The notes under the pieces are model-generated. The model saw nothing but the letters and a program-made list of their open reading frames with translations. It was not told the origin of the DNA and made no database searches. A program made the translations under genes and the position numbers. A DNA stretch of 64,000 bases, taken from the IMG/VR virus record IMGVR_UViG_3300020048_002944; one strand, 5' to 3'. How positions within the stretch are numbered: the first letter of the stretch is position 1; every line of letters starts with the position of its first letter. This document shows, piece after piece, positions 4,116 through 52,484 of this stretch. This stretch comes from a virus (lineage: Duplodnaviria > Caudoviricetes).

Positions 4116-7100
4116 ATGAAACGAAAATTTCTAAAGACAATGGATAAAGATACAATTCTTTTTGTCATGAATGGACGTATGTCATTAGCATATCACTGGG
4201 ATTATTATCAACAGATAAAAAATAACATTATGAAGGAATTTCAATACGAAATTCCTTCTTGTATTTTATTTAAGGCTGGTGATACGGTTGATTCTTGGAT
4301 TGATATGAATTATGCACATGCTGATGGTAAAGCCATCGGTATTTTAAACTTCCGACAACAAGCCATTGATGCATATAATAAACAAATAAGACAAGTACAA
4401 AGTATGGGTGGAACTATTCCTCCGGCAATATACACAGATAAAGAAGGATATGAATTCTTCATCGCTGTTAATGACGGAGAATACCAAAATATTAACAAAG
4501 AATTAATAGAAATTGGTAAGTATGTTGATATTTCACAATATAGTATATCTAGACCATATACACCATTCGATGATAGACACTTAATGGATGATATTAAATT
4601 AACATTCAAAGACGGTAAGAAACCGCTAAATTCTATCATTACATTTAATATGATGATGTACCCACATATAATAGATAAAAATAATGATAATATAGTATAC
4701 ATTCCTTATGGTTTAAGATTATCTACATATATGACAGTTGGGGAAATTGACGAGGTTCGATTATTTCCTAATATGAACGTAGTTAACTATGTAGTGAATG
4801 CACATAGACCAAGCAAAGTTTTCAAAGGGTTAGATAGACTAATAAGAATTTCTTCATCTGATGGACAAACCGACCAGTCAAAAGATTTTAGAAATTTTGA
4901 AGCACATACAATTAACCCATATGTTAAAGAAAGAATGGGTTCACTTCGTAAATTAGTAGAGTATTCTGTTACTGATGCTAAAGAAATTACTGGTCTTCCT
5001 ATTGTAGAAGTGACTGATGTTATTGAGATGCATAAAGACAATATATTTATACTTGTTAAATTAGACAATGGTAAATATAAATATTATGTACACGATATAA
5101 AAACTAATTTATTTAGAATAAATAACCATTCATTCGCTGCAAAAGAAATATCCAAATTAAAAATAGTAGAAGATAGTGTATTCGTTTATTATACTACTAT
5201 TAATAATAAATTGTATAATCTACAAGTATCTATAAAAAATATAGACATGTATGATGAACGACTTATATACAGTTCCAATTACGACATATCAAATCCCGAT
5301 TTTGATATTATTAGTAACTCAGAATTAATATTCAATTATAGAGAAGACGTTCCAACTGATAATATATCAGAAGCAAACAGTATAGAATTAAGAAAAGAAA
5401 AAGAGCTAGCAATAAATTCTTTTAATAATGAGAATCTTATTGCTATATGTGATAATACATTAATGATATTAGAAAAATATACACACAATGAATATAAATT
5501 ATATATAAGAAACACAAACAGTACAAATATAGAAAATATCGACTACTCTAGTTATTTAACATTTTCCAGTGATACTGAAGGAGCTTCAGATATTCAAAAA
5601 GCCGGGGTGTGGTATACTGGAAATAATAGATGGGTTATTAAAATAGGTTATTCATATTGGACTAGTGATGACGAAGGCGTCACTTGGGTAACCAATGTTT
5701 TTTCAGAAGATATATTAAAATCGCTAAACATAACATATGAAAATATAAACTACACAACCCCACCAGAAATTTCAGCGTACACCAATGTAACTTATAATGT
5801 TTATATATACGATGAATATATTATATTTTTGGTTTATATCGGTAACGGTTCGATTGTGCGTAGATTTTACGTATATAATAAATCAACAATGGAAAAAATT
5901 GGTGAATTCGGTGAATTCGGTAACTTTCCTGGGGGACAGTATGAAAGTTATTTAAGCTTAAACAATTTTAAATTTACATATACTGGTAATATATTCTTGC
6001 GTGTTTATAATAATTTAATATATATATATGATAGTGACTGGAAGAAGCTGCGAGTATTCTCAATGACTGGTGAATTAATATCAGTTAGAATATGTAGAAT
6101 ATGTACATTTGGTGAAAATTTCATAGTTGCTATGCAGTACGATGCAGTATCTCCATATAACGCCACTGTAAATAATACTGTAGATATATACGACACTAAT
6201 CTAACAATAGTTAAAAAAATAACAATAGGTGAAATATTCTATGATACAAGTGATCCACTAAACCCAATACCAAATATTCAAGCATTATATATTAATGGTA
6301 TTGTAGCGGATGATAATTATATTTATTTTCTAGATAACGCAAAAACGTTAAAATATGATTGGGTAAATAAGGTGATTGTAAAATATATAAATACTCGATT
6401 ACCGCTTAATTATTCTGCTACTTTATTTAATAATATTACTTATCAGATTAACAATAATAATATTACCGCATATTTAGAAGATCAAATGTTAACAGGACAA
6501 CCCCAAATACCCCAACCATCTGGTAGACATTTATATATATTAAATAACAACTTATATATGGTGAATAATAACAGCACATATAAATTATCAATAACGTATT
6601 ATAGAAATATATTAGATAATTTAAAAAACATCCAAACATTCAAATTCCAAAGTAATAAAGTATGTACGAATTACATATCCCAAAAAAATTCATACTATAC
6701 GTTCAATGAATCATACGGAACATGTAATAATAGATGGTCACACTATAATTATATCAAATTAACAAATAACAGGTATATTTTTATACCGAGTGATATATTT
6801 AATAATGACTATTACTTATTAGATGTTAATGGGGTTATGAAACTTGCTTCGAATTCATCATTTGTAGCGTTCTTTTTAAATAATAATCTTTACCCTGTTA
6901 AGTCGTTTGAATTTAACGAGGTACAATACGTTATAACATCAAACGGTAATATATATAAATATACAGATGGTGTATGTGAATTATATGATACATTGTCTTA
7001 TATAAATAACATAACACACGATGTAATTATTAAAGTTGTGGAAAATATATTATTTATAAATATATTGGATAATGTTATATCATATGATATAGATGCTAAA

Positions 7101-10100
7101 CAAATAATGCAAACGTCATATAATGAACTACAACCATTCCTCGACATACAGAAAAATACTAATGATATGTTGGTAAAATGTACTGACTCTATACAATTTT
7201 ATAATATATCGATGTATAAATGCTCTAATATAATAAATAAACTTAATTATAAATCAAATATAAATAATTCTAATATTGTAGATTTTTGTTTTGATGTGAA
7301 AGGTAACACTACATCGATAGCAATTGGTTCTGATTATTATATAATATTACACCCGGATTCTAACGTTAATAAAAATTCTATCACATGGTGTAGATATAGT
7401 AACATTAACAATACACTAGAATTATCAGACAGTGGAATTCTAAAAGATATAGAAAATAATATAGAATATATGGCTAATTATATATATGACAAACATTCGT
7501 TTAATATTTACACTATAGATAAATATATTTATATTTTAGGTGTATTCACAAATAAAAATAATGATAATATGTATTATATGTACAGATTAGGCGACAGAGG
7601 AGTTGCTAAAATATTCTCGATAGTACACAATTCTAATAAATTAATAAAAAGACCAAAAGACATACTACATATTAATAAATATTTATATCTTTTTAATGGT
7701 GATGATTTATTAGAATTAGATTATAATGACAGGGATAACGATCTATACATAGAAATAAAAAATAACACCATACTCGAAAACACTGGAGATATAAAAGGTG
7801 TAATCAAATTTAATGATAAGACGTTAACTTACGAAAACAACCAAGTGAATATATTCAATAACCAATACACCCTCGAACAAACAAAAAATATACAGAATAT
7901 AATAAATATTTCATTTTATGGTGATAATTTTTTAGTTATAACTAATGATAGTATTATATTATATGATGAAAATTTTGAAATTATCAACAATATGACAATA
8001 CCTGAGGTATTTGTGGATTGTTCGAACATATCCAATGTAGTGAGATATTTAGATTTTATATTCGTAGTTAAATATTTTAACGACGCATATGATAAAAGAT
8101 ACACACTATATAAATTCAAAATCGAAGGTTCGGAATTATTAGAAATAAATAAACTTGATATACCGGCAATCGCGGCAACAGTTACATTATCTATTGAGAA
8201 TAGTATTATATACATAACATATCAAACAACGAATAATATATCTATATTTAAAACATATTTTGATATAATGCAATTACAACAACACACCTTTAAAAATATC
8301 GAAATATCTAATAATTATCACAATATATTTATTGAGAATAAATTTTTATTTATTTCTAATGGAAGTATAAAAATATTCGATAATGATTTAATGGAATTAC
8401 ATGCGATAAATGCAAATGTGATTAAACCAGACCAAGTGTGTTATTATAATGACATATTATATATCGGTGGAATTGGTGTGTTACATGAATTTAAATTTTC
8501 TCTAACTACACCAGGAAATAAACCTTTAAAAATAACAGCTATTATAAACAACGTTAAATATTCGCAAATAAAATTAGATAGTAACATAGATTACATGTCT
8601 AATTTTAAGCATCGCAAAATATTAAAAAATACACTATCTAACAAACAAGTAATCGATATTCACAATAATACCCCAACTACAATAAATGTAAAACAATCGG
8701 TAGATAATATCGAAGATTATATTATTGTAAATGATGACGAATACCCAATAAATGGTCAGAGTATAGTAAGACAATATGATGATGCAGATCAAATAATAGA
8801 TATATTTGGTAATGCTGGTAGTCTCGAATTACATATAGATTCAGGGGATAGAATAAAAACAATTAATGATAATATTATCGATGATGCTCGAATCGAACGA
8901 AAAATCGAATTTGGTGAGTATAACGAAATATCTGATTATGTAGCACATTCTTTTAATGACGGTATAGAAGTAAGTCTTAATAAAAATACGTCAAAAATAT
9001 TAATGGATACAAAATATAATATATCAGGCAAGATACTTTTTACACACATACGAGAAAATAACACATATCTAATAGTTGAAAATACAGCAGCTCAAAGAAA
9101 ATTATACCGTATACTTAAGTTAAATTCAACCCATGAATTATTAGAACATGCTGTAATAGACAGTATATCTAATGTGATAACAAGTAAACAAATAGAGCAA
9201 CTTGTATTAAATTTAGTAGATAATAAATTGCGGAATTCGTCTATCATATTTAAATTAGTTGGCGATAATACACTATATGAATTAAATATAAACACAAATG
9301 AAGTATCGGATATATCCCACATCTTCGCAACAAATCAAGAAGTATTAGATATATATGATATATTACCTATTATTAATTATAAATACTTTATAATGATGTC
9401 TGATAATAATGAATTATTTCTCATTATATATTACAGGACGCGTCAAACAACTACCAATTCGGGCCAGATATGCACTATACTTTTCAAATATGTAACAGTA
9501 AATAATAATTTTCAGTTATTATGGATTAAAAGATTAGAAGATATATTATATAATAACGATGATGTTCCGTTATATATATCGTATAATATCATAATACAGG
9601 GTCAAAATATAATGATAGACAACAGTGGACCTTATTACACATGTATAAATATTAATAATTTAAATAATGTTAAATTTTTAAATAAAAATAATATTATCAA
9701 TTACGATATACACAACAATCAGTTCAATGTTATCGATCAGAAGGTCACTAATACTATATATGAAATAACCGATGATAAAATATTTGCAAATACGAGACTA
9801 TGCAATAGACCACAATCTCAGTTAACCGATATTATAAAATGTACTAAATCACAAACAACCGCTGAAGTATATTTAAAACATAAGGCCACATACAACGATT
9901 TTAATATAATAGAAAATACTAAATACATAGTAGATCAGGTAATATTTAATGGTAAATTATTAATATTATCTAATGAAGATGTCCCTAAAATATACATGTA
10001 CGATACAGATTTAAACTTCATACGAGTAATCAGTATACCAGAAGCATACAATGTAACAAATATATCTTCAACTGATACTAAGATATGTGTTTTCGGACGG

Positions 10101-13100
10101 AGAATTAGAAACAGCGATAACTATATAAATATATTTATATTGAATTCACAATTTCAAGTAGAAGAAATAATACCAACTGAGATTATGTTAGGCTATTCAG
10201 TTATTCGAATAATAGTATTTAATAATATAAACGGATTGTGTATACTAGTACAATTTGGTCTAGGTACAATATATGTATATAGTTATAATAATACACAGGC
10301 TCGGTATATTATGACACGTGTATTTTTTAGTGGTAATAATATTACATGTATAGATATTAGTGTAAATGAAAATAACATATCCATTATATATAATGAACAT
10401 ACTAACGTTAATGCCTGCCAATTATGGTCTACGATATTCGATAAAAATACATTGCAACCTATTCAAAATACATCCAAAGATAGTTTTAACATATCACAAT
10501 ATACTACAAATAATAATAATAATATACTCGCTAAAAATATAAATAATAAAACATACGTGTGGTTTGTAAATACATTATATAATAATAGAACGTTGAAAAA
10601 TATAAATAATAATAGTTTAGATTTTATATATTATAATAGTATGAATAGACAACTGGATATAACTCGACACAATATTCCATTGTCCGTAGAGCAATTAAAT
10701 CTACTAAATTTCAATATTCCACAAAACGAAATTAATTATATTAATTATATTGATGATAATTTATTAATATTGGAAACCCGATATCGCTACACCGTCAAAT
10801 CATATATAATAAATAATTCTATATTATATGAATTTACTAATAGTATACATTGTTTTGATGGTAATCACATATACAGAGCTAGTACAGTGTTACATAGTAG
10901 TGGGAATTATCGTGAATTAATAATAACTAAGCTCGACAAAAATAACCTCAGTGTACTAGAAACATACAATTTTGGAAATGTTTGGTTTGATGGATTACGC
11001 GATATAACAATTTATAAAAATAAAATATATGTTGTTATGCAGTTTGATGAGGATTATTCTAATACATTCATCATAATTATAGATATGGTGTCACATACAA
11101 AACAATCGTTTAGAGGTAAAAATTACGGAATATGTAAATATCTTATATATCGTGATAATATCTACATATATAACAGGGGGGCTTATTATAGTCGTTACGA
11201 TCTCAATATGAATTATATAGACTACCGGACACCAGGTATTCCTCCGCTTAATAGTGATATGCTTTGTAATTATAATGATGAATTTTCATATGTAGTATAC
11301 AATGCGCGTAACATACTATCATCAAATATAAAGAATATATACATACAACCATTAGAAGACGAAAATATTAAATGCGCTACATTCCATCAACATAATATGT
11401 ATTTTTTAAGCGGCACGTCAATTTTTAAGATAGTAAATCAATATGATACACAAATTATATTATCTACTAATAATATAAATAAAAAAGACACAGTTATATT
11501 AAAATCAAAAATATATGGAAACTTCAAACTAACACTAACTATCAACACGGTTACAAATATTTTAAATTGTCATATATTAAATACCTCAAATAATCAAGTA
11601 TATTCTAATGATGTAAATTTAAATACAAGCGATTACTTTACACCAAATTGTATAATTGATGATAAATTATTGCAGTTTCGAGATACTGATAATACTACGA
11701 TAATTAGATTAACTGATTTAAATTTTAATGTCGTGAACGAATTAACAATACCAACATCATATAGAATACAAAGTCACTCAAAGTCAAATTACCCTTATAA
11801 TATAGTAACAAATGATATATTTACATATGACCAATCGTATATATATACAGTATTATTAATTTATCGCAGCGGGTATAAGATATCTGGAATTTGTAAAATA
11901 TCAAAAGATCTCAATACTATTATACCAGAAGAATTCAATATTATAGGTAATGTATCTTATATGTTTATTAATATAATAATACACAATAATAAAATATTTC
12001 TTACCACTCCTAACTATATGGTTATTATAGATATCGATTTATTATCATATGCTCCACAAGACAGACCAACGATTACAGCCAACAATATAGAGGGTGGCCT
12101 AAGGAAAACTCCTGATATATACAATGAATATATTATATATCCCGGCAATCAGTATATTATGTTATATAATACTATATCACAATCGCAAAAAGTAATAAAT
12201 ATTGGTTCGAAATTTGAAAACGGTGCATATGATATCGCGGATATAAGTATATCAGATAATATATTGCCAGATGTACCACATTCTGATTATTTTCTAGCAA
12301 GATTAAGTGTATTTGACATATTTAAACAGCGTAATATAGTTTTTGATTTATGTCGTGATTATGTATACGAATTATCTGACACTATAACAATACCATTAGT
12401 TACTAATGGTGGCGATTTCGAGAAATGTAAATTAATATTCGATGGTGACAATTTAGTATATGATAGATTCGACCTAGATAATAATAAAATAATAACAAAT
12501 ATAATAGATTCTAATAATAATGTATCTGCGAACAGTATTTTACAATTAGATACAACAGCAGTAATAGTAAAATATATAAACTTAAAAATTTCAAATAATA
12601 ATGCATATTTATTATCAGATGCCAATGAAATACATATTATAAATTGTGATAATTATAATAAAATTAATGAAATATCATACGATACATTAAAACCAATAGT
12701 TCAACCAGCATTTAATTATACAAATCCTCAAAAATGGTTATATCTCTATATTTTAAATAATGATTTATATATAGTAGAAAAAAATAGAATATTGGTTATA
12801 GATAAAGATACATTTATTGGTAAAGCGATAATAACTGCACCGGCAAGTCAATTAGTCGGAGAAGAATCGTTTAATGAAATATATGTAGATATTAATAATT
12901 ATATATATATACGTATAAAGAATACAAATAAATTTATTATATATAAAGAAAATATTATAAACACTATCGTTACATTTGATTATGAGTTAGATATTGAACT
13001 TGAAATAAAAATAAAATGTGTTAATAATAATAATTTTTATCTAATAAATGGACTAAATACATATCATTTAGGTACCACTATAAATATTATATCTGGTAAA

Positions 13101-16100
13101 ATACAAATACAAACGTCAAGAAATCACTTCATTAATACATCAAATCAAGGTTTACCAGCAAGACAAAATTCCGAGACTGTATTTTATAATAATAAATACT
13201 ATATCTTCGATAAGCCAATGAGGCGAATTAACGAGTATAATATAGATTATTCTTTAAACAGAACACTAAACAATATACCTATTCCTAATTCTTTTACAAA
13301 CAATATACAATCGTTTAATATATATGATAATAAATTATACATATATACGTATAGACAAGTAAATGATATTTATACACATACGATATTAACATATAATATG
13401 GACGGTGTACTAATAGATACTAATGATATCGTTGGATTAAATGTAATACCGAATGAGATATCTCACATATTAGTATATAGTGATGCTGCTTATATTTCGA
13501 CAAACACAGAAAAAATATTCGTTAAAGAATTATCGAATAGTAACTCAACAAAAACAAAAACTGTTGTAGATATACGTAAATATTTCGATTTTATTAAATT
13601 GAACGTATTTGTTATATTTAATAACAAATTCTTCTTCTTATGTGAAGTAAGTGAAAATATATATAAAATTATAATAACTGATTATAATTTAAATACTCTT
13701 TCTATGTTAGATACTGAAAAGATTAATAAATTCTATCCTGATGGTGATAAATTATACTATACTATCGGTGATACTATTTATGAAATAGTAGAAAGAGAAA
13801 ATAACACATATATAAATAAACAAATAAAAAATAATGAGTTTATTCTTGTTTCTAAAGACGAGAACAATAAGTTTAATTATAACATATTTAAACCATATGA
13901 AGAAATATCTACATATAAGTTTATAGATGCGATAGCTAATGGTTCCGATTTCTTAATATATAATAGAACTAATTTAAGTAATGATATACTAATATCTCAC
14001 AATTATGGAGAGACGTTCCTAAATACAGGATTCGACAACGATAACCTATACCAGAAACATTTATTATTAACAAGTGGTAAATGTTATATATGGGATAGTG
14101 TTAGGTCTTTAGGTAATTCTAAATTCATCGAAGCTAATATTAAAGGTGTTATTAACCATAATGGTAAATATTTAACATATCCACAAATAATAAGATCTGA
14201 AAATACATTCACGACTTGGTCTAACCTTGGGCATGTGTATAAAAAGATTATATCTATTAACGATAAAGTAATCGGTATTTCTTTAACCGGTGGCATATAC
14301 GTCTCAGGTGACGATGGTGTTACATGGGATACTTTTGATATATCTAATACTATTGTATATGATGATATAATTCGTTTTAATAATGGATTTATTGTATATA
14401 ATTCTACAAATACACATATCTATAGAAATATTGAGAGTAATGTGATGGAAGTACTATGTGATGCGACAGGTGTTATAGATGTTCAAGTATTTAAAGATAC
14501 CATCATATTGAAATACGAAGAAGAATCAAGAATAATAAATAATTCTAATGTTGATATATATTTATTTAGAATATATGATGTGTTAAAATTAACAGACCGT
14601 GTAATTCTAAGTACAGATAAAGGTGTACATATATCATATAATGGTATAGAATACTTTAAACGATTAGATACGGTTATGTATAAAGCAATTAGTATAGTAA
14701 ATGGAATAATGTTTACAGATACTGATAATGTTATATACACTACAGACTTAGATTGTAGAAATATGACTACTTTACACAATCCGGATATATTGATAGATTT
14801 AACACCTGATGAGTTTTTCATATATAAATATGGAAATGTTATATTTACGAATCATGCGGTTTCATTAAATAATGGATTCACATGGAGTACGATAACCTCG
14901 CCATCACTAACATTAAAATCAGTATATCATATATCTAATAAATTCATGATATCAACTAAATCAGGATCAACATATTCGATAGAAGATGACGGTCCGGTTA
15001 TAAGTGAACTAACACCAGGAAATATAATATCGAATAGTGTCATACTAGACGTTATCCCAGTAACAATCAATATTAATAAACTGATATTATTGGAAGAACT
15101 AAGTAAACAGGAAATATTACCTACATTAACCGAAGATATCGTTGATATGTGTGTTTACGATTACTATATAGTATTACGGGACTCTACATATAAACATTGG
15201 TTAATAGATCTTAAAACTAAACAGAGTTTTGATTTAGGTGTTAACGGTGATCCTATACTAGACGAGAATTACAAATCAATTGTCATCAGAATGATAAATG
15301 ATGGAACAGTGACAATACCTTATATATTTATAAACCTAAGCGACGGTATACATATCGTGAAAGCTTCAAATATTACAAATAAACGTATAATAAATATAAC
15401 TGATGTAAAATATTTATCTGTTGATTCTGATGGGGATATGTATCTTATTAAAAATACACCAGCCTGTCTTATAGATAAAATAGATTTTCAAGGTAATCAT
15501 ATACTTACGTTTGGCGGAAGTGGATCTACAAATGGAGTATTTGGACAATCGTTTGACTTATCAAATAGTTCAAATATAATAACTGTAGACAAATCTGATA
15601 ACGTTTATATATTCGACGAATTGAATTATCGCGTACAGAAGTTTGATAGGAATGGATTATTTGTAACTAACATTGGTGAATTTGGCGAAGATCCATCACA
15701 ATTAAATTACACAACACAACAAAATGTCGATTTACAAATAGACGATAATAATAATATTGTTATATATTTTAAAAATTCTGACATTATTAAGAAGTATAGA
15801 AACTATGGAACATTTATTTCATCTAATAATGATAAAAATTATGACATAGATTTATCTGCTGAAAATATACTAAAAATATCACCAACAGAACCTTCTGTGT
15901 TCACTATATTACAAGATGGAGATACATTCTCTATTAAGAAATATAATAAAATGGTAGATATGTATTATAGACGAGCTATCGTTAAACTTGGTAATAACTT
16001 ACTTTGTTTAATGTATGATAAAGATGAAAAATTAATAAAGAAATATGTTATAGATACATATACTGATAATATGACGGAATTTAATTCTAACGTATTTGAT

Positions 16101-17330
16101 GATGTTAATTTAGTAGACTTGTTTGAAAAATATAACAACCTCTGTCAGTATAATCCTAGTGATACCTCACAGCGAACAGGAAACAGAACTAATTACATTT
16201 TAACAATCGAAGATAACAGGTTTAGAATATACACCAAGTTCGGACAAGCAATGGTCTGGACGAGAAGAGGTGATTTCGATCCAGTTAGAATGGTTGATGG
16301 TGTAACTGTTAATTTCGAAAGAGTTACTTCTTCTATGTATGAAGATAGTGAGGGTGTGTATATAGCAGTATATAATAATTCTAATTTTTCTACAGTTATA
16401 TTAAGATATGATATAGTTGCTAATACAATACATCTAGTTAAAAATATAGATGATAGAAATATTTACATAACTCATATGAAAAAATATTTCGATAGAATTG
16501 CTATATATGATGAACTATCACAGTCTCTTATAATCACTACCCCAGATTTTCAAACTTTCTATTATAATAATACAGATCTAGACAATAGGTATATAGTAGA
16601 CACAGAACAAAAAACAAACGTGCTATATTTACCAAGTCAAATAATAATCAATGACCCTAATAATGAAAATTATTACAATATAAGACTTCCTAAAAAGAAG
16701 GATTATAGATATGCGTTTAGACCTAGAATATATAAATGGAAAGATATAAACATATCTGAACCAATACAACCAACAGTAATCAGTCCTTATCTTGGAAACA
16801 ATAAGCATAAGAAATTATTGTCTATTAGATTTCCTACTAAGATAAATAAAAATGCATATATACTAGTATATAACGGTATACCTTTATTCTTTAATAACAG
16901 AGTAAACCCTAAAGATGATCATGAAATACTATTGGATGATCTTGATCTTTATAGAGCTATATTAAAATATAGTAATCCTATAAGTGTACATAAAGATACA
17001 TCTTACGAATCCCATAATTTTACATTGATTAATGCTTCTACTGATAATCTTTCGAAAGAAGTTTATTTGTATTTAGATAGAGCAAATGTAGAATATAGAG
17101 GAAAAGAAATTGTCGCTAGATTCTCAGCTCCTATATATGGAGAATGTATATTGTTAAATGGAATAGACCATGAATATATAATAGAAGACCCACATACTAT
17201 TAAATACATACCATCTAGATTCGGTATATCTGAAAAGATAGATGAATTAAATGATGTTGGTACTTATAATATGGAAGTAGCTAAAGAACACGTTGTATGT
17301 AAATTACAATTTATACTAAAAGATAAATAA
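4116..17330 (+). CDS. giant 4404-aa putative tail/baseplate-associated protein with many beta-propeller (Asp-box/BNR, NHL-like) repeats
   Basis: Single 13.2-kb ORF; Asp-boxes (TSDDEGVTW, SHNYGETF, SGDDGVTW, SLNNGFTW); NHL-like VYIFDELNYRVQKFDRNGLFVTNIG. Confidence 0.75.
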   Translation: MKRKFLKTMDKDTILFVMNGRMSLAYHWDYYQQIKNNIMKEFQYEIPSCILFKAGDTVDSWIDMNYAHADGKAIGILNFRQQAIDAYNKQIRQVQSMGGTIPPAIYTDKEGYEFFIAVNDGEYQNINKELIEIGKYVDISQYSISRPYTPFDDRHLMDDIKLTFKDGKKPLNSIITFNMMMYPHIIDKNNDNIVYIPYGLRLSTYMTVGEIDEVRLFPNMNVVNYVVNAHRPSKVFKGLDRLIRISSSDGQTDQSKDFRNFEAHTINPYVKERMGSLRKLVEYSVTDAKEITGLPIVEVTDVIEMHKDNIFILVKLDNGKYKYYVHDIKTNLFRINNHSFAAKEISKLKIVEDSVFVYYTTINNKLYNLQVSIKNIDMYDERLIYSSNYDISNPDFDIISNSELIFNYREDVPTDNISEANSIELRKEKELAINSFNNENLIAICDNTLMILEKYTHNEYKLYIRNTNSTNIENIDYSSYLTFSSDTEGASDIQKAGVWYTGNNRWVIKIGYSYWTSDDEGVTWVTNVFSEDILKSLNITYENINYTTPPEISAYTNVTYNVYIYDEYIIFLVYIGNGSIVRRFYVYNKSTMEKIGEFGEFGNFPGGQYESYLSLNNFKFTYTGNIFLRVYNNLIYIYDSDWKKLRVFSMTGELISVRICRICTFGENFIVAMQYDAVSPYNATVNNTVDIYDTNLTIVKKITIGEIFYDTSDPLNPIPNIQALYINGIVADDNYIYFLDNAKTLKYDWVNKVIVKYINTRLPLNYSATLFNNITYQINNNNITAYLEDQMLTGQPQIPQPSGRHLYILNNNLYMVNNNSTYKLSITYYRNILDNLKNIQTFKFQSNKVCTNYISQKNSYYTFNESYGTCNNRWSHYNYIKLTNNRYIFIPSDIFNNDYYLLDVNGVMKLASNSSFVAFFLNNNLYPVKSFEFNEVQYVITSNGNIYKYTDGVCELYDTLSYINNITHDVIIKVVENILFINILDNVISYDIDAKQIMQTSYNELQPFLDIQKNTNDMLVKCTDSIQFYNISMYKCSNIINKLNYKSNINNSNIVDFCFDVKGNTTSIAIGSDYYIILHPDSNVNKNSITWCRYSNINNTLELSDSGILKDIENNIEYMANYIYDKHSFNIYTIDKYIYILGVFTNKNNDNMYYMYRLGDRGVAKIFSIVHNSNKLIKRPKDILHINKYLYLFNGDDLLELDYNDRDNDLYIEIKNNTILENTGDIKGVIKFNDKTLTYENNQVNIFNNQYTLEQTKNIQNIINISFYGDNFLVITNDSIILYDENFEIINNMTIPEVFVDCSNISNVVRYLDFIFVVKYFNDAYDKRYTLYKFKIEGSELLEINKLDIPAIAATVTLSIENSIIYITYQTTNNISIFKTYFDIMQLQQHTFKNIEISNNYHNIFIENKFLFISNGSIKIFDNDLMELHAINANVIKPDQVCYYNDILYIGGIGVLHEFKFSLTTPGNKPLKITAIINNVKYSQIKLDSNIDYMSNFKHRKILKNTLSNKQVIDIHNNTPTTINVKQSVDNIEDYIIVNDDEYPINGQSIVRQYDDADQIIDIFGNAGSLELHIDSGDRIKTINDNIIDDARIERKIEFGEYNEISDYVAHSFNDGIEVSLNKNTSKILMDTKYNISGKILFTHIRENNTYLIVENTAAQRKLYRILKLNSTHELLEHAVIDSISNVITSKQIEQLVLNLVDNKLRNSSIIFKLVGDNTLYELNINTNEVSDISHIFATNQEVLDIYDILPIINYKYFIMMSDNNELFLIIYYRTRQTTTNSGQICTILFKYVTVNNNFQLLWIKRLEDILYNNDDVPLYISYNIIIQGQNIMIDNSGPYYTCININNLNNVKFLNKNNIINYDIHNNQFNVIDQKVTNTIYEITDDKIFANTRLCNRPQSQLTDIIKCTKSQTTAEVYLKHKATYNDFNIIENTKYIVDQVIFNGKLLILSNEDVPKIYMYDTDLNFIRVISIPEAYNVTNISSTDTKICVFGRRIRNSDNYINIFILNSQFQVEEIIPTEIMLGYSVIRIIVFNNINGLCILVQFGLGTIYVYSYNNTQARYIMTRVFFSGNNITCIDISVNENNISIIYNEHTNVNACQLWSTIFDKNTLQPIQNTSKDSFNISQYTTNNNNNILAKNINNKTYVWFVNTLYNNRTLKNINNNSLDFIYYNSMNRQLDITRHNIPLSVEQLNLLNFNIPQNEINYINYIDDNLLILETRYRYTVKSYIINNSILYEFTNSIHCFDGNHIYRASTVLHSSGNYRELIITKLDKNNLSVLETYNFGNVWFDGLRDITIYKNKIYVVMQFDEDYSNTFIIIIDMVSHTKQSFRGKNYGICKYLIYRDNIYIYNRGAYYSRYDLNMNYIDYRTPGIPPLNSDMLCNYNDEFSYVVYNARNILSSNIKNIYIQPLEDENIKCATFHQHNMYFLSGTSIFKIVNQYDTQIILSTNNINKKDTVILKSKIYGNFKLTLTINTVTNILNCHILNTSNNQVYSNDVNLNTSDYFTPNCIIDDKLLQFRDTDNTTIIRLTDLNFNVVNELTIPTSYRIQSHSKSNYPYNIVTNDIFTYDQSYIYTVLLIYRSGYKISGICKISKDLNTIIPEEFNIIGNVSYMFINIIIHNNKIFLTTPNYMVIIDIDLLSYAPQDRPTITANNIEGGLRKTPDIYNEYIIYPGNQYIMLYNTISQSQKVINIGSKFENGAYDIADISISDNILPDVPHSDYFLARLSVFDIFKQRNIVFDLCRDYVYELSDTITIPLVTNGGDFEKCKLIFDGDNLVYDRFDLDNNKIITNIIDSNNNVSANSILQLDTTAVIVKYINLKISNNNAYLLSDANEIHIINCDNYNKINEISYDTLKPIVQPAFNYTNPQKWLYLYILNNDLYIVEKNRILVIDKDTFIGKAIITAPASQLVGEESFNEIYVDINNYIYIRIKNTNKFIIYKENIINTIVTFDYELDIELEIKIKCVNNNNFYLINGLNTYHLGTTINIISGKIQIQTSRNHFINTSNQGLPARQNSETVFYNNKYYIFDKPMRRINEYNIDYSLNRTLNNIPIPNSFTNNIQSFNIYDNKLYIYTYRQVNDIYTHTILTYNMDGVLIDTNDIVGLNVIPNEISHILVYSDAAYISTNTEKIFVKELSNSNSTKTKTVVDIRKYFDFIKLNVFVIFNNKFFFLCEVSENIYKIIITDYNLNTLSMLDTEKINKFYPDGDKLYYTIGDTIYEIVERENNTYINKQIKNNEFILVSKDENNKFNYNIFKPYEEISTYKFIDAIANGSDFLIYNRTNLSNDILISHNYGETFLNTGFDNDNLYQKHLLLTSGKCYIWDSVRSLGNSKFIEANIKGVINHNGKYLTYPQIIRSENTFTTWSNLGHVYKKIISINDKVIGISLTGGIYVSGDDGVTWDTFDISNTIVYDDIIRFNNGFIVYNSTNTHIYRNIESNVMEVLCDATGVIDVQVFKDTIILKYEEESRIINNSNVDIYLFRIYDVLKLTDRVILSTDKGVHISYNGIEYFKRLDTVMYKAISIVNGIMFTDTDNVIYTTDLDCRNMTTLHNPDILIDLTPDEFFIYKYGNVIFTNHAVSLNNGFTWSTITSPSLTLKSVYHISNKFMISTKSGSTYSIEDDGPVISELTPGNIISNSVILDVIPVTININKLILLEELSKQEILPTLTEDIVDMCVYDYYIVLRDSTYKHWLIDLKTKQSFDLGVNGDPILDENYKSIVIRMINDGTVTIPYIFINLSDGIHIVKASNITNKRIINITDVKYLSVDSDGDMYLIKNTPACLIDKIDFQGNHILTFGGSGSTNGVFGQSFDLSNSSNIITVDKSDNVYIFDELNYRVQKFDRNGLFVTNIGEFGEDPSQLNYTTQQNVDLQIDDNNNIVIYFKNSDIIKKYRNYGTFISSNNDKNYDIDLSAENILKISPTEPSVFTILQDGDTFSIKKYNKMVDMYYRRAIVKLGNNLLCLMYDKDEKLIKKYVIDTYTDNMTEFNSNVFDDVNLVDLFEKYNNLCQYNPSDTSQRTGNRTNYILTIEDNRFRIYTKFGQAMVWTRRGDFDPVRMVDGVTVNFERVTSSMYEDSEGVYIAVYNNSNFSTVILRYDIVANTIHLVKNIDDRNIYITHMKKYFDRIAIYDELSQSLIITTPDFQTFYYNNTDLDNRYIVDTEQKTNVLYLPSQIIINDPNNENYYNIRLPKKKDYRYAFRPRIYKWKDINISEPIQPTVISPYLGNNKHKKLLSIRFPTKINKNAYILVYNGIPLFFNNRVNPKDDHEILLDDLDLYRAILKYSNPISVHKDTSYESHNFTLINASTDNLSKEVYLYLDRANVEYRGKEIVARFSAPIYGECILLNGIDHEYIIEDPHTIKYIPSRFGISEKIDELNDVGTYNMEVAKEHVVCKLQFILKDK

Positions 17331-17334
17331 TATT

Positions 17335-17366
17335 TACAGAGGGAATAATTCCCTCTGTATTTTTTT
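17335..17366 (+). terminator. intrinsic terminator
   Basis: TACAGAGGGAA-taa-TTCCCTCTGTA + T7. Confidence 0.85.
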
Positions 17367-17368
17367 AC

Positions 17369-17392
17369 AAAAAAAGAGGTTGTTGCACCTCT
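17369..17392 (-). terminator. intrinsic terminator on minus strand
   Basis: AGAGGT-gcaaca-ACCTCT followed by T tract on minus strand. Confidence 0.75.
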
Positions 17393-17640
17393 CTAAACAT
17401 TTTTTTAAACTGGTTCGTTTTTCCAGTCGTTGTAACTACTCCAACCACCGTTTTTAAATTTCAAATATCAGTAGTCAATTGATATTTACTATCCCGTGCA
17501 ATTACAAGGGTTACTCCTTACTTTATAACTACTCGCCAGGATCGGTCAAGCCAAACCTTCTACTGTGTTTGGACAGCTATTGTATTTACAATAGGTACAT
17601 TATTTGTGGTCCTATCTTAATTAGGATAGATCAATGTACA
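17369..17640 (-). ncRNA. candidate structured non-coding RNA (~270 nt)
   Basis: Early-type promoter upstream (17643-17658, -) and own terminator (17369-17392, -); at least 6 hairpins; no credible ORF. Confidence 0.6.
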
Positions 17641-17642
17641 AT

Positions 17643-17658
17643 ATTATTATATATATTT
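17643..17658 (-). promoter_or_regulatory. early-type phage promoter motif
   Basis: AAATATATATAATAAT on minus strand, same variant as at 29887. Confidence 0.5.
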
Positions 17659-17702
17659 ATATAGTAATTAATTACTATTTTTTAATATATAAATATATAT
17701 AA

Positions 17703-17714
17703 AACATGTATATA
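17703..17714 (+). promoter_or_regulatory. late-type promoter AACA-N6-TA
   Basis: AACATGTATATA upstream of the RBS of 17741. Confidence 0.6.
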
Positions 17715-17740
17715 CATTTAAATTAAAAAGGAGCTTACAT

Positions 17741-20005
17741 ATGGTGTACAAATTAGAAAAAACAACAAAACTACCAACAAATGGATATGATATGTTATCA
17801 TTAAACATTTCCGGTCCTGAATACATATTCGGATCATTATTCGGACATATATTCCACTCTCTAAACAAAGGTAAAACATGGGAGAAATATCCAGAGAATA
17901 TTTTAAAGAATCAAAATGTTAGAATGATTAAACAATTCACAGACCCATTTAAAACTACATATATTGCTATTGGTGATAACTGTATTGCTAAATACGAATG
18001 TCGTTATGTAGAAGAAATTAAAATAGACCCGTACGACATCAACTTCAATACAGGAGTAAGTGGTAATATATACATAACATCTAAACCAGATTGGCAAACT
18101 GCGGAAATATTTGAAGATAAGAATCACATCGTATTAGATATTGTTAGAATAAATACTATCTCCGAAGGATCTGTTTATTATATCCTAACAAATCAAAATA
18201 AGTTATTTTCTTGTTCGTCTGCAAATATAATTAATTTTGATGGGTGGAGAGATGTTAGTCATATATTAGAAAATCTTAACCAAGCAGTAAGTATTGCTTC
18301 TGATTTAACTTACCTTTATGTATTACTATCATCTGGTGACTATATGAAAGTATTACCAGAAGGAAATCATTCTAGTGAACTACGAGATAAACAATTAACA
18401 GTGACTGTTAATAATATAAATTTACCTCTTATACGCATTGGGAATAGCCGAGAAGTAGCTAAGAATTTCTATTCTGACAAAGTATCATTAACAAAAGAAT
18501 GGGTGAAAGAAAATGGGAAAAAATTCAATATTGATGTATCCAAAATCCCAGAAGGCGAATCCCAAACATTTCAAGCTCTATGTTATTTAATAACTACAAC
18601 ATTTGGTCGCGTATTCATGTCGTTAGATTTTAATACTTGGGTTGAAATACCTGTTCCATCTAAAACCTTGAAAGTCACAGAAGACAAGTTTATAACAATT
18701 CCAATATGTAATAATATTTTATCTGTTACTTTTACTGGTATGAAGATTTATCTATTAACTAGTGTTGGTGTTTATATAAATATCGAACTGGAGAAATTCT
18801 CACTATATATGTCAGATGTAAATGTATATATACACGATGCTGATATAGTAACGCTGTCAGACAAGGTTATTCCATCGACCGACCTTAACACTAACCCTCT
18901 CATGAATCTTACTAAAAGATGTATAGCTATAAATAAAGAAACTATATTAATAGGATGTCAGTATGGTATAATTATAAGATGTGAATTTAAAAAGACATCA
19001 GATAAATTATCAGTTAGTGAGTGGTTTACTGGTTATCCTGACGTGGGTGGAGATATTAAACGTCATATCACTAAAGGAGATATTTCATATAGACTGTATG
19101 CTTCCGCAGAATATTCTGAATTTCGTAAAAAGATAGGCTTATCAAAAAGCACAGCATCGCTACCAATATCAAATTCAACACTCGTAATAACCCATCAAGG
19201 TGTATCTTATAAGTTAGAATTAAGAGATCCGACTTTACGCGGATCTATATCTACATTAGAGGGATATGCTGCGGTGTCTAATGTAATTGACGAAAATATG
19301 TTTATTGGTGATATTCGGGATGCTGGTGGAGATACTATATATTTAATATATGATAATGGTGTTATTATTAAATTATCGTGCACTGTATCACAAGCTGGGG
19401 AAATAATCATTAATGCATACTACGATGACGTTTATTCTAAAAACAATGATGAAAAAAGACAACTTACTTACATAGCGTATAATAAATATTCTGGTAAAGT
19501 TGAGACGTCTTTCGCCCTATCTAAAACAGAAAATTCTAATCCACAATTACCGGAATTTAATAAATTCGAAGAAGATATTAAACAACAAATGTTAGCCAAT
19601 CCAAAAGTATTTTCACTCATGGAAAAAGCTAAGTTAGAAATGTCTAATTCTATAATGGAAATAGTTCATACTAAAGATTCTGATTATGGATTAAATGCTG
19701 CAAACGAAATTGTCAAATTAGATAAAGATGGAAATGGTACTGGTGTTGCGATTATAAACGTAAACTTACCACCAAACTCTTCTGTTGTATTGGACGATGA
19801 TACGGCAATTATAAATACCGACCAATCCCATTATATGATAAAAAATGAGAAAGCAACAGCACTATCAGAAAAAGATTTCAATATTCCTATGCGAAATACT
19901 TTTTTCTCTACAATGCTTGAGATGAAGGACGATAATTTGGAGCTTTCTAAATTGGGAAGCTTAGATACCTTTAAGATTAAAACTAGTGATTATTACAAGA
20001 TTTAA
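17741..20005 (+). CDS. Asp-box/beta-propeller protein, putative virion protein
   Basis: FHSLNKGKTW and FMSLDFNTW Asp-box-like motifs; AGGAG RBS. Confidence 0.55.
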   Translation: MVYKLEKTTKLPTNGYDMLSLNISGPEYIFGSLFGHIFHSLNKGKTWEKYPENILKNQNVRMIKQFTDPFKTTYIAIGDNCIAKYECRYVEEIKIDPYDINFNTGVSGNIYITSKPDWQTAEIFEDKNHIVLDIVRINTISEGSVYYILTNQNKLFSCSSANIINFDGWRDVSHILENLNQAVSIASDLTYLYVLLSSGDYMKVLPEGNHSSELRDKQLTVTVNNINLPLIRIGNSREVAKNFYSDKVSLTKEWVKENGKKFNIDVSKIPEGESQTFQALCYLITTTFGRVFMSLDFNTWVEIPVPSKTLKVTEDKFITIPICNNILSVTFTGMKIYLLTSVGVYINIELEKFSLYMSDVNVYIHDADIVTLSDKVIPSTDLNTNPLMNLTKRCIAINKETILIGCQYGIIIRCEFKKTSDKLSVSEWFTGYPDVGGDIKRHITKGDISYRLYASAEYSEFRKKIGLSKSTASLPISNSTLVITHQGVSYKLELRDPTLRGSISTLEGYAAVSNVIDENMFIGDIRDAGGDTIYLIYDNGVIIKLSCTVSQAGEIIINAYYDDVYSKNNDEKRQLTYIAYNKYSGKVETSFALSKTENSNPQLPEFNKFEEDIKQQMLANPKVFSLMEKAKLEMSNSIMEIVHTKDSDYGLNAANEIVKLDKDGNGTGVAIINVNLPPNSSVVLDDDTAIINTDQSHYMIKNEKATALSEKDFNIPMRNTFFSTMLEMKDDNLELSKLGSLDTFKIKTSDYYKI

Positions 20006-21279: not shown

Positions 21280-21295
21280 AAATATATATTATAAT
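21280..21295 (+). promoter_or_regulatory. early-type promoter motif
   Basis: AAATATATATTATAAT. Confidence 0.65.
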
Positions 21296-25864: not shown

Positions 25865-25988
25865 ATCGAATTTACCCGACTTAATATTGGCTGCACATCT
25901 GAGAATATTCCCCACAACCAAATAAAATTTCTCTAATTACTCCTTAATCTGACACAAGTCAAGATACTATATCGTCAAAAGCATCTTG
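25865..25988 (-). promoter_or_regulatory. candidate structured 5' leader or small RNA
   Basis: Four hairpins; three contain G-U pairs that only work on the minus strand. Confidence 0.45.
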
Positions 25989-29886: not shown

Positions 29887-29902
29887 AAATATATATAATA
29901 AC
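29887..29902 (+). promoter_or_regulatory. early-type promoter motif (variant)
   Basis: AAATATATATAATAAC. Confidence 0.5.
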
Positions 29903-44270: not shown

Positions 44271-44504
44271 ATGTTCGCACATATCTTAGAAAAGTACCAA
44301 ATACCAGCAGTAGCTATAGTTATAATTATTGCGGTATTGTTGTTAATTATCATAAGCGGGTTTATTTCGAGCGCAGTATTTAGTACACGCACATACAACT
44401 CGTCAAAAAAGACAATTAAAGATAAGATTTTATTCATATTGTCGATATTTTTAAACTGGTTCGGTTTAATAATATACGTTATTCGTAAATGTATGAAAAA
44501 ATAA
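44271..44504 (+). CDS. small membrane protein (2 TM)
   Basis: AGGAG RBS; two hydrophobic segments. Confidence 0.75.
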   Translation: MFAHILEKYQIPAVAIVIIIAVLLLIIISGFISSAVFSTRTYNSSKKTIKDKILFILSIFLNWFGLIIYVIRKCMKK

Positions 44505-46304: not shown

Positions 46305-46330
46305 AATATACCTCTTATATCATTATGTTG

Positions 46331-46360
46331 AAAAAAAAGAGATGGGTATATCCCATCTCT
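46331..46360 (-). terminator. intrinsic terminator
   Basis: AGAGATGGG-atata-CCCATCTCT + T tract on minus strand. Confidence 0.85.
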
Positions 46361-46625
46361 ATTTGAGCATACATAGAATGATATGCTCTATTACGAGATT
46401 AAAATCTCGTAACTCTACCTCTGTGGTACATGGGGTTCCACAGTGATTAGTAATAGTAGACAACGACTGAACGTTGTCACATACGAATGGGATCTTAATC
46501 CCATTCGTATTAGTAACATAAAACGTTCCACTATCCACTTCTATAGTGGATATATCCTGTACACGGATGAAGGTTTTTCTTCCTTCATCCTCTTTTTCTT
46601 TTATGTATAATATTGTCTTTTCCAT
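46359..46625 (-). CDS. small early hypothetical protein
   Basis: AGGAG RBS; TATATATTAT motif at 46653-46665 (-). Confidence 0.75.
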   Translation of the reverse strand: MEKTILYIKEKEDEGRKTFIRVQDISTIEVDSGTFYVTNTNGIKIPFVCDNVQSLSTITNHCGTPCTTEVELRDFNLVIEHIILCMLK

Positions 46626-46726
46626 ATTAAACTCCTTTTTGTTTATCTACTAATATAATATATAACCAAATACAAGGTAGATACTATTAGTTTTATACGA
46701 TTATATTATCCTAGTATTTAATATAA

Positions 46727-51947: not shown

Positions 51948-52063
51948 TTTTCCTCTCCTTTTATTATTTGGTATTTGTAACATTTTGATTTTTTCATTTT
52001 TTCTCCTTAATTTATAGTTAATTAAATGTTCTTAAAATAAAAAAAAGAGGCGTTCAAGCCTCT

Positions 52064-52366
52064 TTAATTTCCGAAGAACGACAATTCGTCGTCTTCGAAT
52101 TTTTCCCTGTTTCTCACAGGGAAATTCCTATTTGGGGTCAGTGTTCGGACGAACTTATCCCACTCCCCCAAATCTTTATATATAGCATTTCGAATTTCGA
52201 TCTCTGCGATCGATTTTGAAATACTATATAATTGTCTCTCTATCTTTTTTATCAAGACAGAGAGACGACTGTCATCGACACCGACAGTCTCTAGAGTCGT
52301 TGTTTGTAACAACAACCCTTCCAATTCAGATTTCCTCATTTTGAGAAAATCGATATCGTTTGTCAT
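52064..52366 (-). CDS. small early hypothetical protein
   Basis: GGGAGG RBS; early motif 52392-52404; terminator 52040-52065. Confidence 0.8.
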   Translation of the reverse strand: MTNDIDFLKMRKSELEGLLLQTTTLETVGVDDSRLSVLIKKIERQLYSISKSIAEIEIRNAIYKDLGEWDKFVRTLTPNRNFPVRNREKFEDDELSFFGN

Positions 52367-52484
52367 ATAATCCTCCCTAGGTTTATCACCTATATAATAT
52401 ATAATTATAAAGGACGGTAGTGCTAAATATTTATATTTATATACTTTTAAAAAAAAGCAGTCATCTCAGACTACTTTTTAATTA

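Follow-up and report, generated by a model that had tools for sequence, protein, structure and literature searches.

The early genes of AR9/PBS1-like jumbo phages are read by an injected multisubunit RNA polymerase. In phage AR9, the early promoter of this virion RNA polymerase is described as AAATATATATTAT-(N6)-G(+1) and the late promoter as AACA-(N6)-TA/G (PMC5312081). The AR9 transcriptome lists 292 ORFs and one tRNA (PMC5312081), and we found no description in the literature of a non-coding RNA in AR9/PBS1-like jumbo phages. In other jumbo phages, small RNAs without known function have already been documented: among phiKZ-like phages, 201phi2-1 possesses 11 sRNAs, three of which are intergenic, while phiKZ carries an sRNA upstream of gp182 and PA5oct has four ncRNAs (PMC11512511, PMC7318152).

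Here we consider a locus in a 64,000-nucleotide stretch of DNA from an uncultured jumbo phage (hereafter the window), which has a GC content of 30%; metagenome assemblies are the only source of this phage. The window encodes an RNA polymerase beta-like subunit (PHROG 3148, E 1e-179) whose best tblastn matches, at 34-35% identity, lie in the Bacillus phages Goe21/PBS1, Staphylococcus jumbo phages, Listeria LPJP1 and Yersinia phiR1-37; judged by these matches, the phage is of the AR9-like (AR9/PBS1-like) group. No close relative of the subunit was detected among viral contigs. An attempt to deduce the host from an LRR protein was uninformative, the protein showing 29% identity to a Prevotellaceae MAG. 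Within the window, a 410-nt gap between two large genes carries the signals of a transcription unit on the minus strand, and the best reading of these signals, on balance a probable one, is a stand-alone gene, in an AR9/PBS1-like jumbo phage, for an early-expressed non-coding RNA.

Boundary signals of the candidate gene

The gap separates a 4404-aa ORF (4116-17330, plus strand) from a 754-aa ORF (17741-20005, plus strand) and is the longest ORF-free stretch in the window, the remaining long gaps of which all contain small ORFs. Because genes in the window end in all three stop codons, the standard genetic code applies; with these three stops in use and many stops in every frame of the gap, an alternative code or a hidden ORF was ruled out. 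Neither flanking protein has a Pfam match. The 754-aa protein matched only itself in a word search of 5.8 billion clusters and in an exhaustive HMMER search of 1.84 billion representatives, and no relative was found by tblastn of phages or in viral contigs; for the C-terminus of the 4404-aa protein, protein searches likewise returned only the self-match. Another assembly of the locus does not differ from the window and thus offers no population variation.

Two intrinsic terminators stand back to back in the gap, as the preliminary description of this DNA had claimed. T1 (17335-17359, plus strand), an 11-bp stem followed by TTTTTTT, ends the 4404-aa gene. T2 (17369-17394, minus strand) has a canonical hairpin of eight pairs, with its stem at 17394-17373, and a run of seven U at 17375-17369, which forms the predicted 3' end of the RNA. 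The further claim that T2 faces the minus strand although no gene ends there was borne out: neither the ORF list nor a scan of all minus-strand frames contains an ORF ending at T2. Strong terminators elsewhere in the window mostly lie directly behind ORF ends, to which T2 is the exception; terminators like it follow genes at 52044-52065 and 46338-46360. A 2-kb scan counted three terminator-like sites within 17331-17740, compared with 0.4 expected from shuffles.

Facing T2 is the promoter that had been described as an early-type variant pointing into the gap, and it is indeed present. The motif AAATATATATAAT (17646-17658, minus strand) agrees with the AR9-type early consensus AAATATATATTAT at 12 of 13 positions and is followed by the 6-nt spacer AATATT (17645-17640) and a G at 17639, the predicted +1 on the minus strand. 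The locus therefore contains each element of an AR9-type early unit: promoter, 6-nt spacer and purine start. Exact copies of AAATATATATTAT occur six times in the window (at 21280, 27250, 35233, 38006 and 42650 on the plus strand, and at 53442-53430 on the minus strand), every one just upstream of a correctly oriented gene and followed by A-N4-T and a purine. The other promoters of the window and the candidate have this spacer pattern in common, with A first, T sixth and then a purine. Ten other intergenic matches with zero or one mismatch all appear to be aimed at a nearby gene start, and a further seven matches, each with one mismatch, fall inside coding sequence and are probably due to chance. 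The variant AAATATATATAAT itself recurs in the window at 29887-29899, before gene 29928, and in AR9 the same sequence is active at a mapped early start site, that of g157 (PMC5312081, Table S2). According to the AR9 study, however, the virion RNA polymerase does not tolerate every departure from the consensus, and certain single changes abolish activity (PMC5312081).

On account of the spacer pattern in the window, the variant before gene 29928 and the activity of the variant at AR9 g157, the promoter call is credible, though unproven. Chance matches come more easily here because the motif sits inside an AT-only near-palindrome, and we estimate, by judgement and not by calculation, that a motif made only of A and T has a non-trivial probability of finding a 12/13 match by chance in a near-palindrome of 10% GC. 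This near-palindrome (17647-17702, 10% GC) lies in a spacer (17640-17740, also 10% GC) that carries divergent promoter-like motifs, with early-like motifs on both strands of the near-palindrome. Late-type AACA-N6-TA motifs occur in the window as well: one at 17703-17714 (plus strand) serves the downstream 754-aa gene, is divergent from the early promoter, and overlaps with its AACA the plus-strand copy of the early-like motif. Both promoter classes seem to be common to this phage and Bacillus phage AR9, judging by these motifs, despite RNA polymerase beta subunits that are only ~35% identical.

The RNA body and the search for relatives

Transcription from G17639 to the U-run of T2 would yield an RNA of ~271 nt (17369-17639, minus strand; 35% GC). 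It contains no credible ORF, with many stops in every minus-strand frame. The longest frames that have both a start and a stop comprise 8 codons (from UUG) and 19 codons, neither with a Shine-Dalgarno sequence, and a 26-codon frame, also without one, meets no stop before the RNA ends. On the opposite strand of the gap, a 61-aa frame starting at TTG lies behind two terminators and is equipped with neither promoter nor RBS. What is usually looked for in an sRNA gene—its own promoter, its own intrinsic terminator and no translatable ORF between them—is thus found at this locus. The body is also comparatively rich in GC, at 35% versus 14-30% in 12 other intergenic spacers and 27% and 31% in the flanking genes. 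This gene-like architecture of promoter, +1, terminator and ORF-free, GC-richer body is real, and its elements are unlikely to have come together by chance; from such sequence signals we infer that the candidate RNA is transcribed, and likewise its timing, stability and function.

The preliminary description portrayed the enclosed sequence as a chain of hairpins. The listed hairpins do exist. H1 (17595-17639, minus strand; RNA 1-45) begins with an 8-bp outer stem at the predicted +1 and encloses a 5-bp inner stem; H2 (17577-17594, minus strand; RNA 46-63) is a perfect 7-bp stem, CUAUUGU/ACAAUAG; and H5 (17463-17487, minus strand) is a perfect 8-bp stem with a 9-nt loop, AUUGACUAC. As a chain, however, they rise only modestly above shuffled sequence. 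The minus-strand body without the terminator folds at -53.6 kcal/mol (z -2.43), which 2 of 200 shuffles equalled, compared with -46.4 kcal/mol (z -1.63) for the plus strand of the same body. Set against the genome's own 275-nt windows, the fold ranks at the 9th percentile after GC correction (z -1.25). It is accordingly modestly better than shuffles but ordinary against the genome background.

Two features lie among these hairpins. An orphan Shine-Dalgarno-like sequence, UAAGGAGUAA (17511-17520, minus strand), is followed by UUG-UAA, placing a start directly before a stop. The same 10-mer occurs at 25937-25946 (minus strand), in a 202-nt leader upstream of gene 25844; this is one of many 10-mer matches and may be chance. 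The second feature is the 9-mer GAGUAGUUA, which was said to occur twice and does, at 17526-17534 and at 17433-17441 (both minus strand), although the copies are not part of any significant internal duplication of the RNA. The loop AUUGACUAC was proposed to pair with either copy. It can do so, over 7-8 bp including one G-U and at about -9 kcal/mol, and a third, G-U-rich partner site is also present. Such pairing is nonetheless no rarer than chance allows: in 300 dinucleotide shuffles, 30% contained a hairpin loop with at least two such 7-bp partners and 14% one with at least three. With duplexes of only about -9 kcal/mol, the alternative pseudoknot or switch that had been proposed on this basis falls within chance, and the pairing of loop and 9-mer is no evidence of anything.

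The statement that the RNA was not recognizable as a tRNA, tmRNA, 6S RNA or RNase P held up under an Rfam scan, which had itself been put forward as a check. Searched with Rfam 15 at E values up to 10, the gap gave sub-threshold matches only, the best of them (at most 25.6 bits) on the two terminator hairpins and the others at 8.9-22.9 bits, far below gathering; across the whole 64-kb window no match reached gathering level. The families in scope included 6S, tmRNA, RNase P, riboswitches, CRISPR repeats and ROOL/GOLLD. ARAGORN found neither tRNA nor tmRNA at the locus.

Searches for relatives were similarly empty. The DNA of the locus had no blastn match among 50,697 phage records, and no homologue emerged from exact and gapped pattern scans of the viral contigs of IMG/VR or from one pattern scan of JGI metagenomes. 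A single gapped-pattern hit (L002) was rejected as a chance match to unrelated tandem-repeat, satellite-like sequence of higher GC. A covariance model built from the single sequence (R1) matched nothing in AR9, PB50, LPJP1 or phiR1-37 and revealed no paralogue within the window, and between the predicted RNA and the other genes of the window no nucleotide similarity extends beyond one 16-mer. This absence of relatives is not evidence against function.

Hairpin-rich early genes and rival explanations

Two small minus-strand early genes elsewhere in the window consist almost wholly of consecutive near-perfect hairpins across the coding sequence and are stranger than the candidate RNA. One encodes 88 aa (46625-46359, minus strand, in the region 46330-46640) behind the RBS AAGGAG. 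Its mRNA forms about eight perfect hairpins of 7-13 bp plus a terminator, with an MFE of -112.8 kcal/mol for 311 nt at ~33% GC (z -12.1), and nowhere else in the window are perfect palindromes so dense. The protein has no Pfam or PHROG match, and the Atlas returned unnamed clusters only. The other gene encodes 100 aa (52366-52064, minus strand, in the region 52040-52400), and its mRNA reaches an MFE of -144.4 kcal/mol over 361 nt (z -14.2). That stretch folds ~10 kcal/mol more weakly on the plus strand and only three of the stems are perfect at the DNA level, which together point to selection at the level of RNA. No family match was found for the 100-aa protein, and its coding sequence and extreme RNA structure appear to be maintained together. 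Both genes have in common with the candidate a layout of early promoter, hairpin chain and terminator.

That resemblance bears on the possibility that the locus is merely the remnant of an early gene, its promoter and terminator surviving while the ORF has been lost and the remaining RNA does nothing. We consider this unlikely, though several observations would fit. Elsewhere in the window, early units take the form of small genes that each have a promoter and a terminator; the hairpin-rich pair at 46.5 kb and 52.2 kb retains its ORFs within the same layout; a GC content of 35% resembles coding sequence; and the RNA includes an AAGGAG that looks like an RBS and a UUG start, its stop following directly. 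Against decay, the three minus-strand frames are interrupted by many stops, the longest open runs of ~20-31 codons being near random for 30% GC, and the sequence resembles no phage record and no gene of the window beyond the one 16-mer. Compact phage genomes, furthermore, are expected to delete dead DNA quickly. It is rather unlikely, too, that the gap makes no functional RNA at all, in which case the promoter would be a by-product of the AT-rich palindromic spacer, T2 no more than T1's guard or bidirectional partner, and the body simply spacer. The two 26-nt arms of the near-palindrome (17647-17672 and 17677-17702) are 88% complementary, and a weaker early-like motif, matching at 11 of 13 positions, lies on the plus strand at 17691-17703; these features, the seven one-mismatch matches inside coding sequence and a structure ordinary for the genome are consistent with this account. 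The minus-strand copy is nevertheless the better match and has the correct N6-purine geometry, other intergenic matches of such quality appear to precede gene starts, and the first stem starts exactly at the predicted +1. A guard terminator, moreover, would have no need of 240 nt of comparatively GC-rich sequence separating it from the promoter.

Two further accounts are very improbable. The locus might act as DNA, for instance as a replication origin or protein-binding region, which early transcription might switch on; T4 and T7 are known to have origins activated by transcription. The sequence AGTAGTYA occurs three times, twice in one orientation and once inverted (17433-17441, 17470-17477 and 17526-17534), beside the very AT-rich stretch 17640-17740, a possible site of unwinding. 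Three 8-9-mers are within chance, however, and there are no iteron-like tandem arrays and no turning point of GC skew at 17.5 kb; the AT-rich stretch, besides, lies upstream of the promoter and not downstream. We give just as little credence to a micro-peptide gene, such as the 8-codon UUG frame after AAGGAG or the 19-codon frame. The strong Shine-Dalgarno-like AAGGAG inside the RNA speaks for it, as does the early transcript of AR9 g214, which holds an unannotated ORF of 15 codons with a good Shine-Dalgarno sequence. In the candidate RNA, by contrast, the start at correct Shine-Dalgarno spacing directly precedes UAA, the 8-codon frame begins 12 nt past the Shine-Dalgarno sequence, the 19- and 26-codon frames have none, and the latter runs on without a stop ahead of the terminator. 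The early non-coding RNA gene thus remains our preferred reading. What stands of it from the preliminary description is a predicted ORF-free unit of ~270 nt on the minus strand, with an early promoter and a terminator of its own, that matches no Rfam family, tRNA or tmRNA; the accompanying interpretation as a switch is not supported.

Possible role and comparison with known systems

How might such a non-coding RNA come about and act? Upon infection, the injected virion RNA polymerase would recognize AAATATATATAAT at 17658-17646 on the minus strand, start at G17639, transcribe ~271 nt and stop at T2 (17394-17369), a terminator that would also block an antisense run of minus-strand transcription into the giant late gene. 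The RNA would then fold into about six short hairpins. With its first stem opening at +1 and the terminator as its last, the RNA would be base-paired at both ends, an arrangement that protects RNAs from 5' and 3' exonucleases in Gram-positive hosts of low GC. The internal orphan Shine-Dalgarno sequence could add to this stability by binding 30S subunits, in the manner of STAB-SD elements. An RNA dedicated to this early phase would appear among the earliest products once the DNA is injected, and would therefore be a candidate for a part in host takeover or counter-defence.

As to the activity of the RNA, regulation by base-pairing in trans is our preferred guess. The longest exact match of the RNA to other DNA of the window is a 16-nt complement (17402-17417, minus strand; RNA 223-238), which spans the H6 loop, 3' arm and A-run and could pair with an mRNA at 44448-44463; it extends to 21 of 23 positions, at -22 kcal/mol. 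The mRNA in question would encode a hydrophobic protein of 77 aa (44271-44504, plus strand) with two apparent membrane-spanning stretches and a good RBS, an ORF that falls below the 100-aa threshold for ORF listing. A match of 16 nt was reached by 5 of 300 Markov-shuffled sequences with the same dinucleotide statistics (p ~0.02, for a match found post hoc), and the complement lies deep inside the coding sequence, near its 3' end and 27 kb from the candidate RNA. As a specific target, the mRNA of this small membrane protein at 44448-44463 is a weak lead that will probably prove wrong. Pairing with the ribosome-binding regions of 45 window genes was no better than that of shuffled RNAs.

A broader proposal, quite unlikely at present, is that the candidate is the first of a new class of virion-RNA-polymerase early regulatory or decoy RNAs in AR9-like jumbo phages of the uracil-DNA type, maybe linked to the 46.5-kb and 52.2-kb transcripts. 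On this proposal several strongly folded early transcripts of the phage would work as RNAs, for instance by serving as decoys for RNases or defence systems, and the candidate would be the one that lacks an ORF.

Among known systems, RNA antitoxins (type I, and type III ToxI) come to mind, as an ORF-free small phage RNA that could pair over 16 nt with the message for a small hydrophobic protein has some likeness to them. The antitoxin-like role once suggested for the RNA gains no support from ToxI-type features, however: the body contains no tandem repeats of ~30-40 nt of the ToxI type and no toxin gene is adjacent. From type I antitoxins it also differs in that its possible target is 27 kb away and the pairing would fall near the target's 3' end. 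The STAB-SD 5' stabilizers of Gram-positive mRNAs, reportedly described for cryIIIA by Agaisse and Lereclus in 1996, offer another parallel, in that an orphan Shine-Dalgarno sequence without productive translation is combined with a 5'-terminal stem. In the candidate, though, the Shine-Dalgarno sequence sits ~120 nt from the 5' end.

The early units of AR9/PBS1 (Lavysh et al. 2017, PMC5312081) are a further comparison, with the same consensus AAATATATATTAT-N6-purine(+1) as the candidate. Like the candidate, some AR9 early start sites have long stretches lacking an annotated gene, such as the one of 340 nt ahead of g214. Annotation treats the AR9 units as 5' UTRs belonging to same-strand genes, whereas the candidate would stand alone. 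The 340-nt g214 leader (L004:325-600; AR9 181724-182000) folds at z -4.2, has a GGAGG Shine-Dalgarno sequence before its unannotated 15-codon ORF, and contains a strong hairpin before a late AACA-N6-TA promoter; unlike the candidate it is without a canonical adjacent terminator, and the two have no sequence similarity. The AR9 transcript assigned to the late virion gene g214 may, for its part, represent a short early unit in its own right and not a 5' UTR.

With the sRNAs of phiKZ-like jumbo phages, finally, the candidate has in common a short unit that runs from start site to terminator, without a CDS or a known function. Transcriptomics revealed those sRNAs, one of which is shared between genera, whereas the candidate, from the AR9-like rather than the phiKZ-like lineage and with no detectable homologue, is predicted from sequence signals only. 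It gives, for this lineage, a precise prediction: an early minus-strand transcript that starts at 17639 and ends near 17369.
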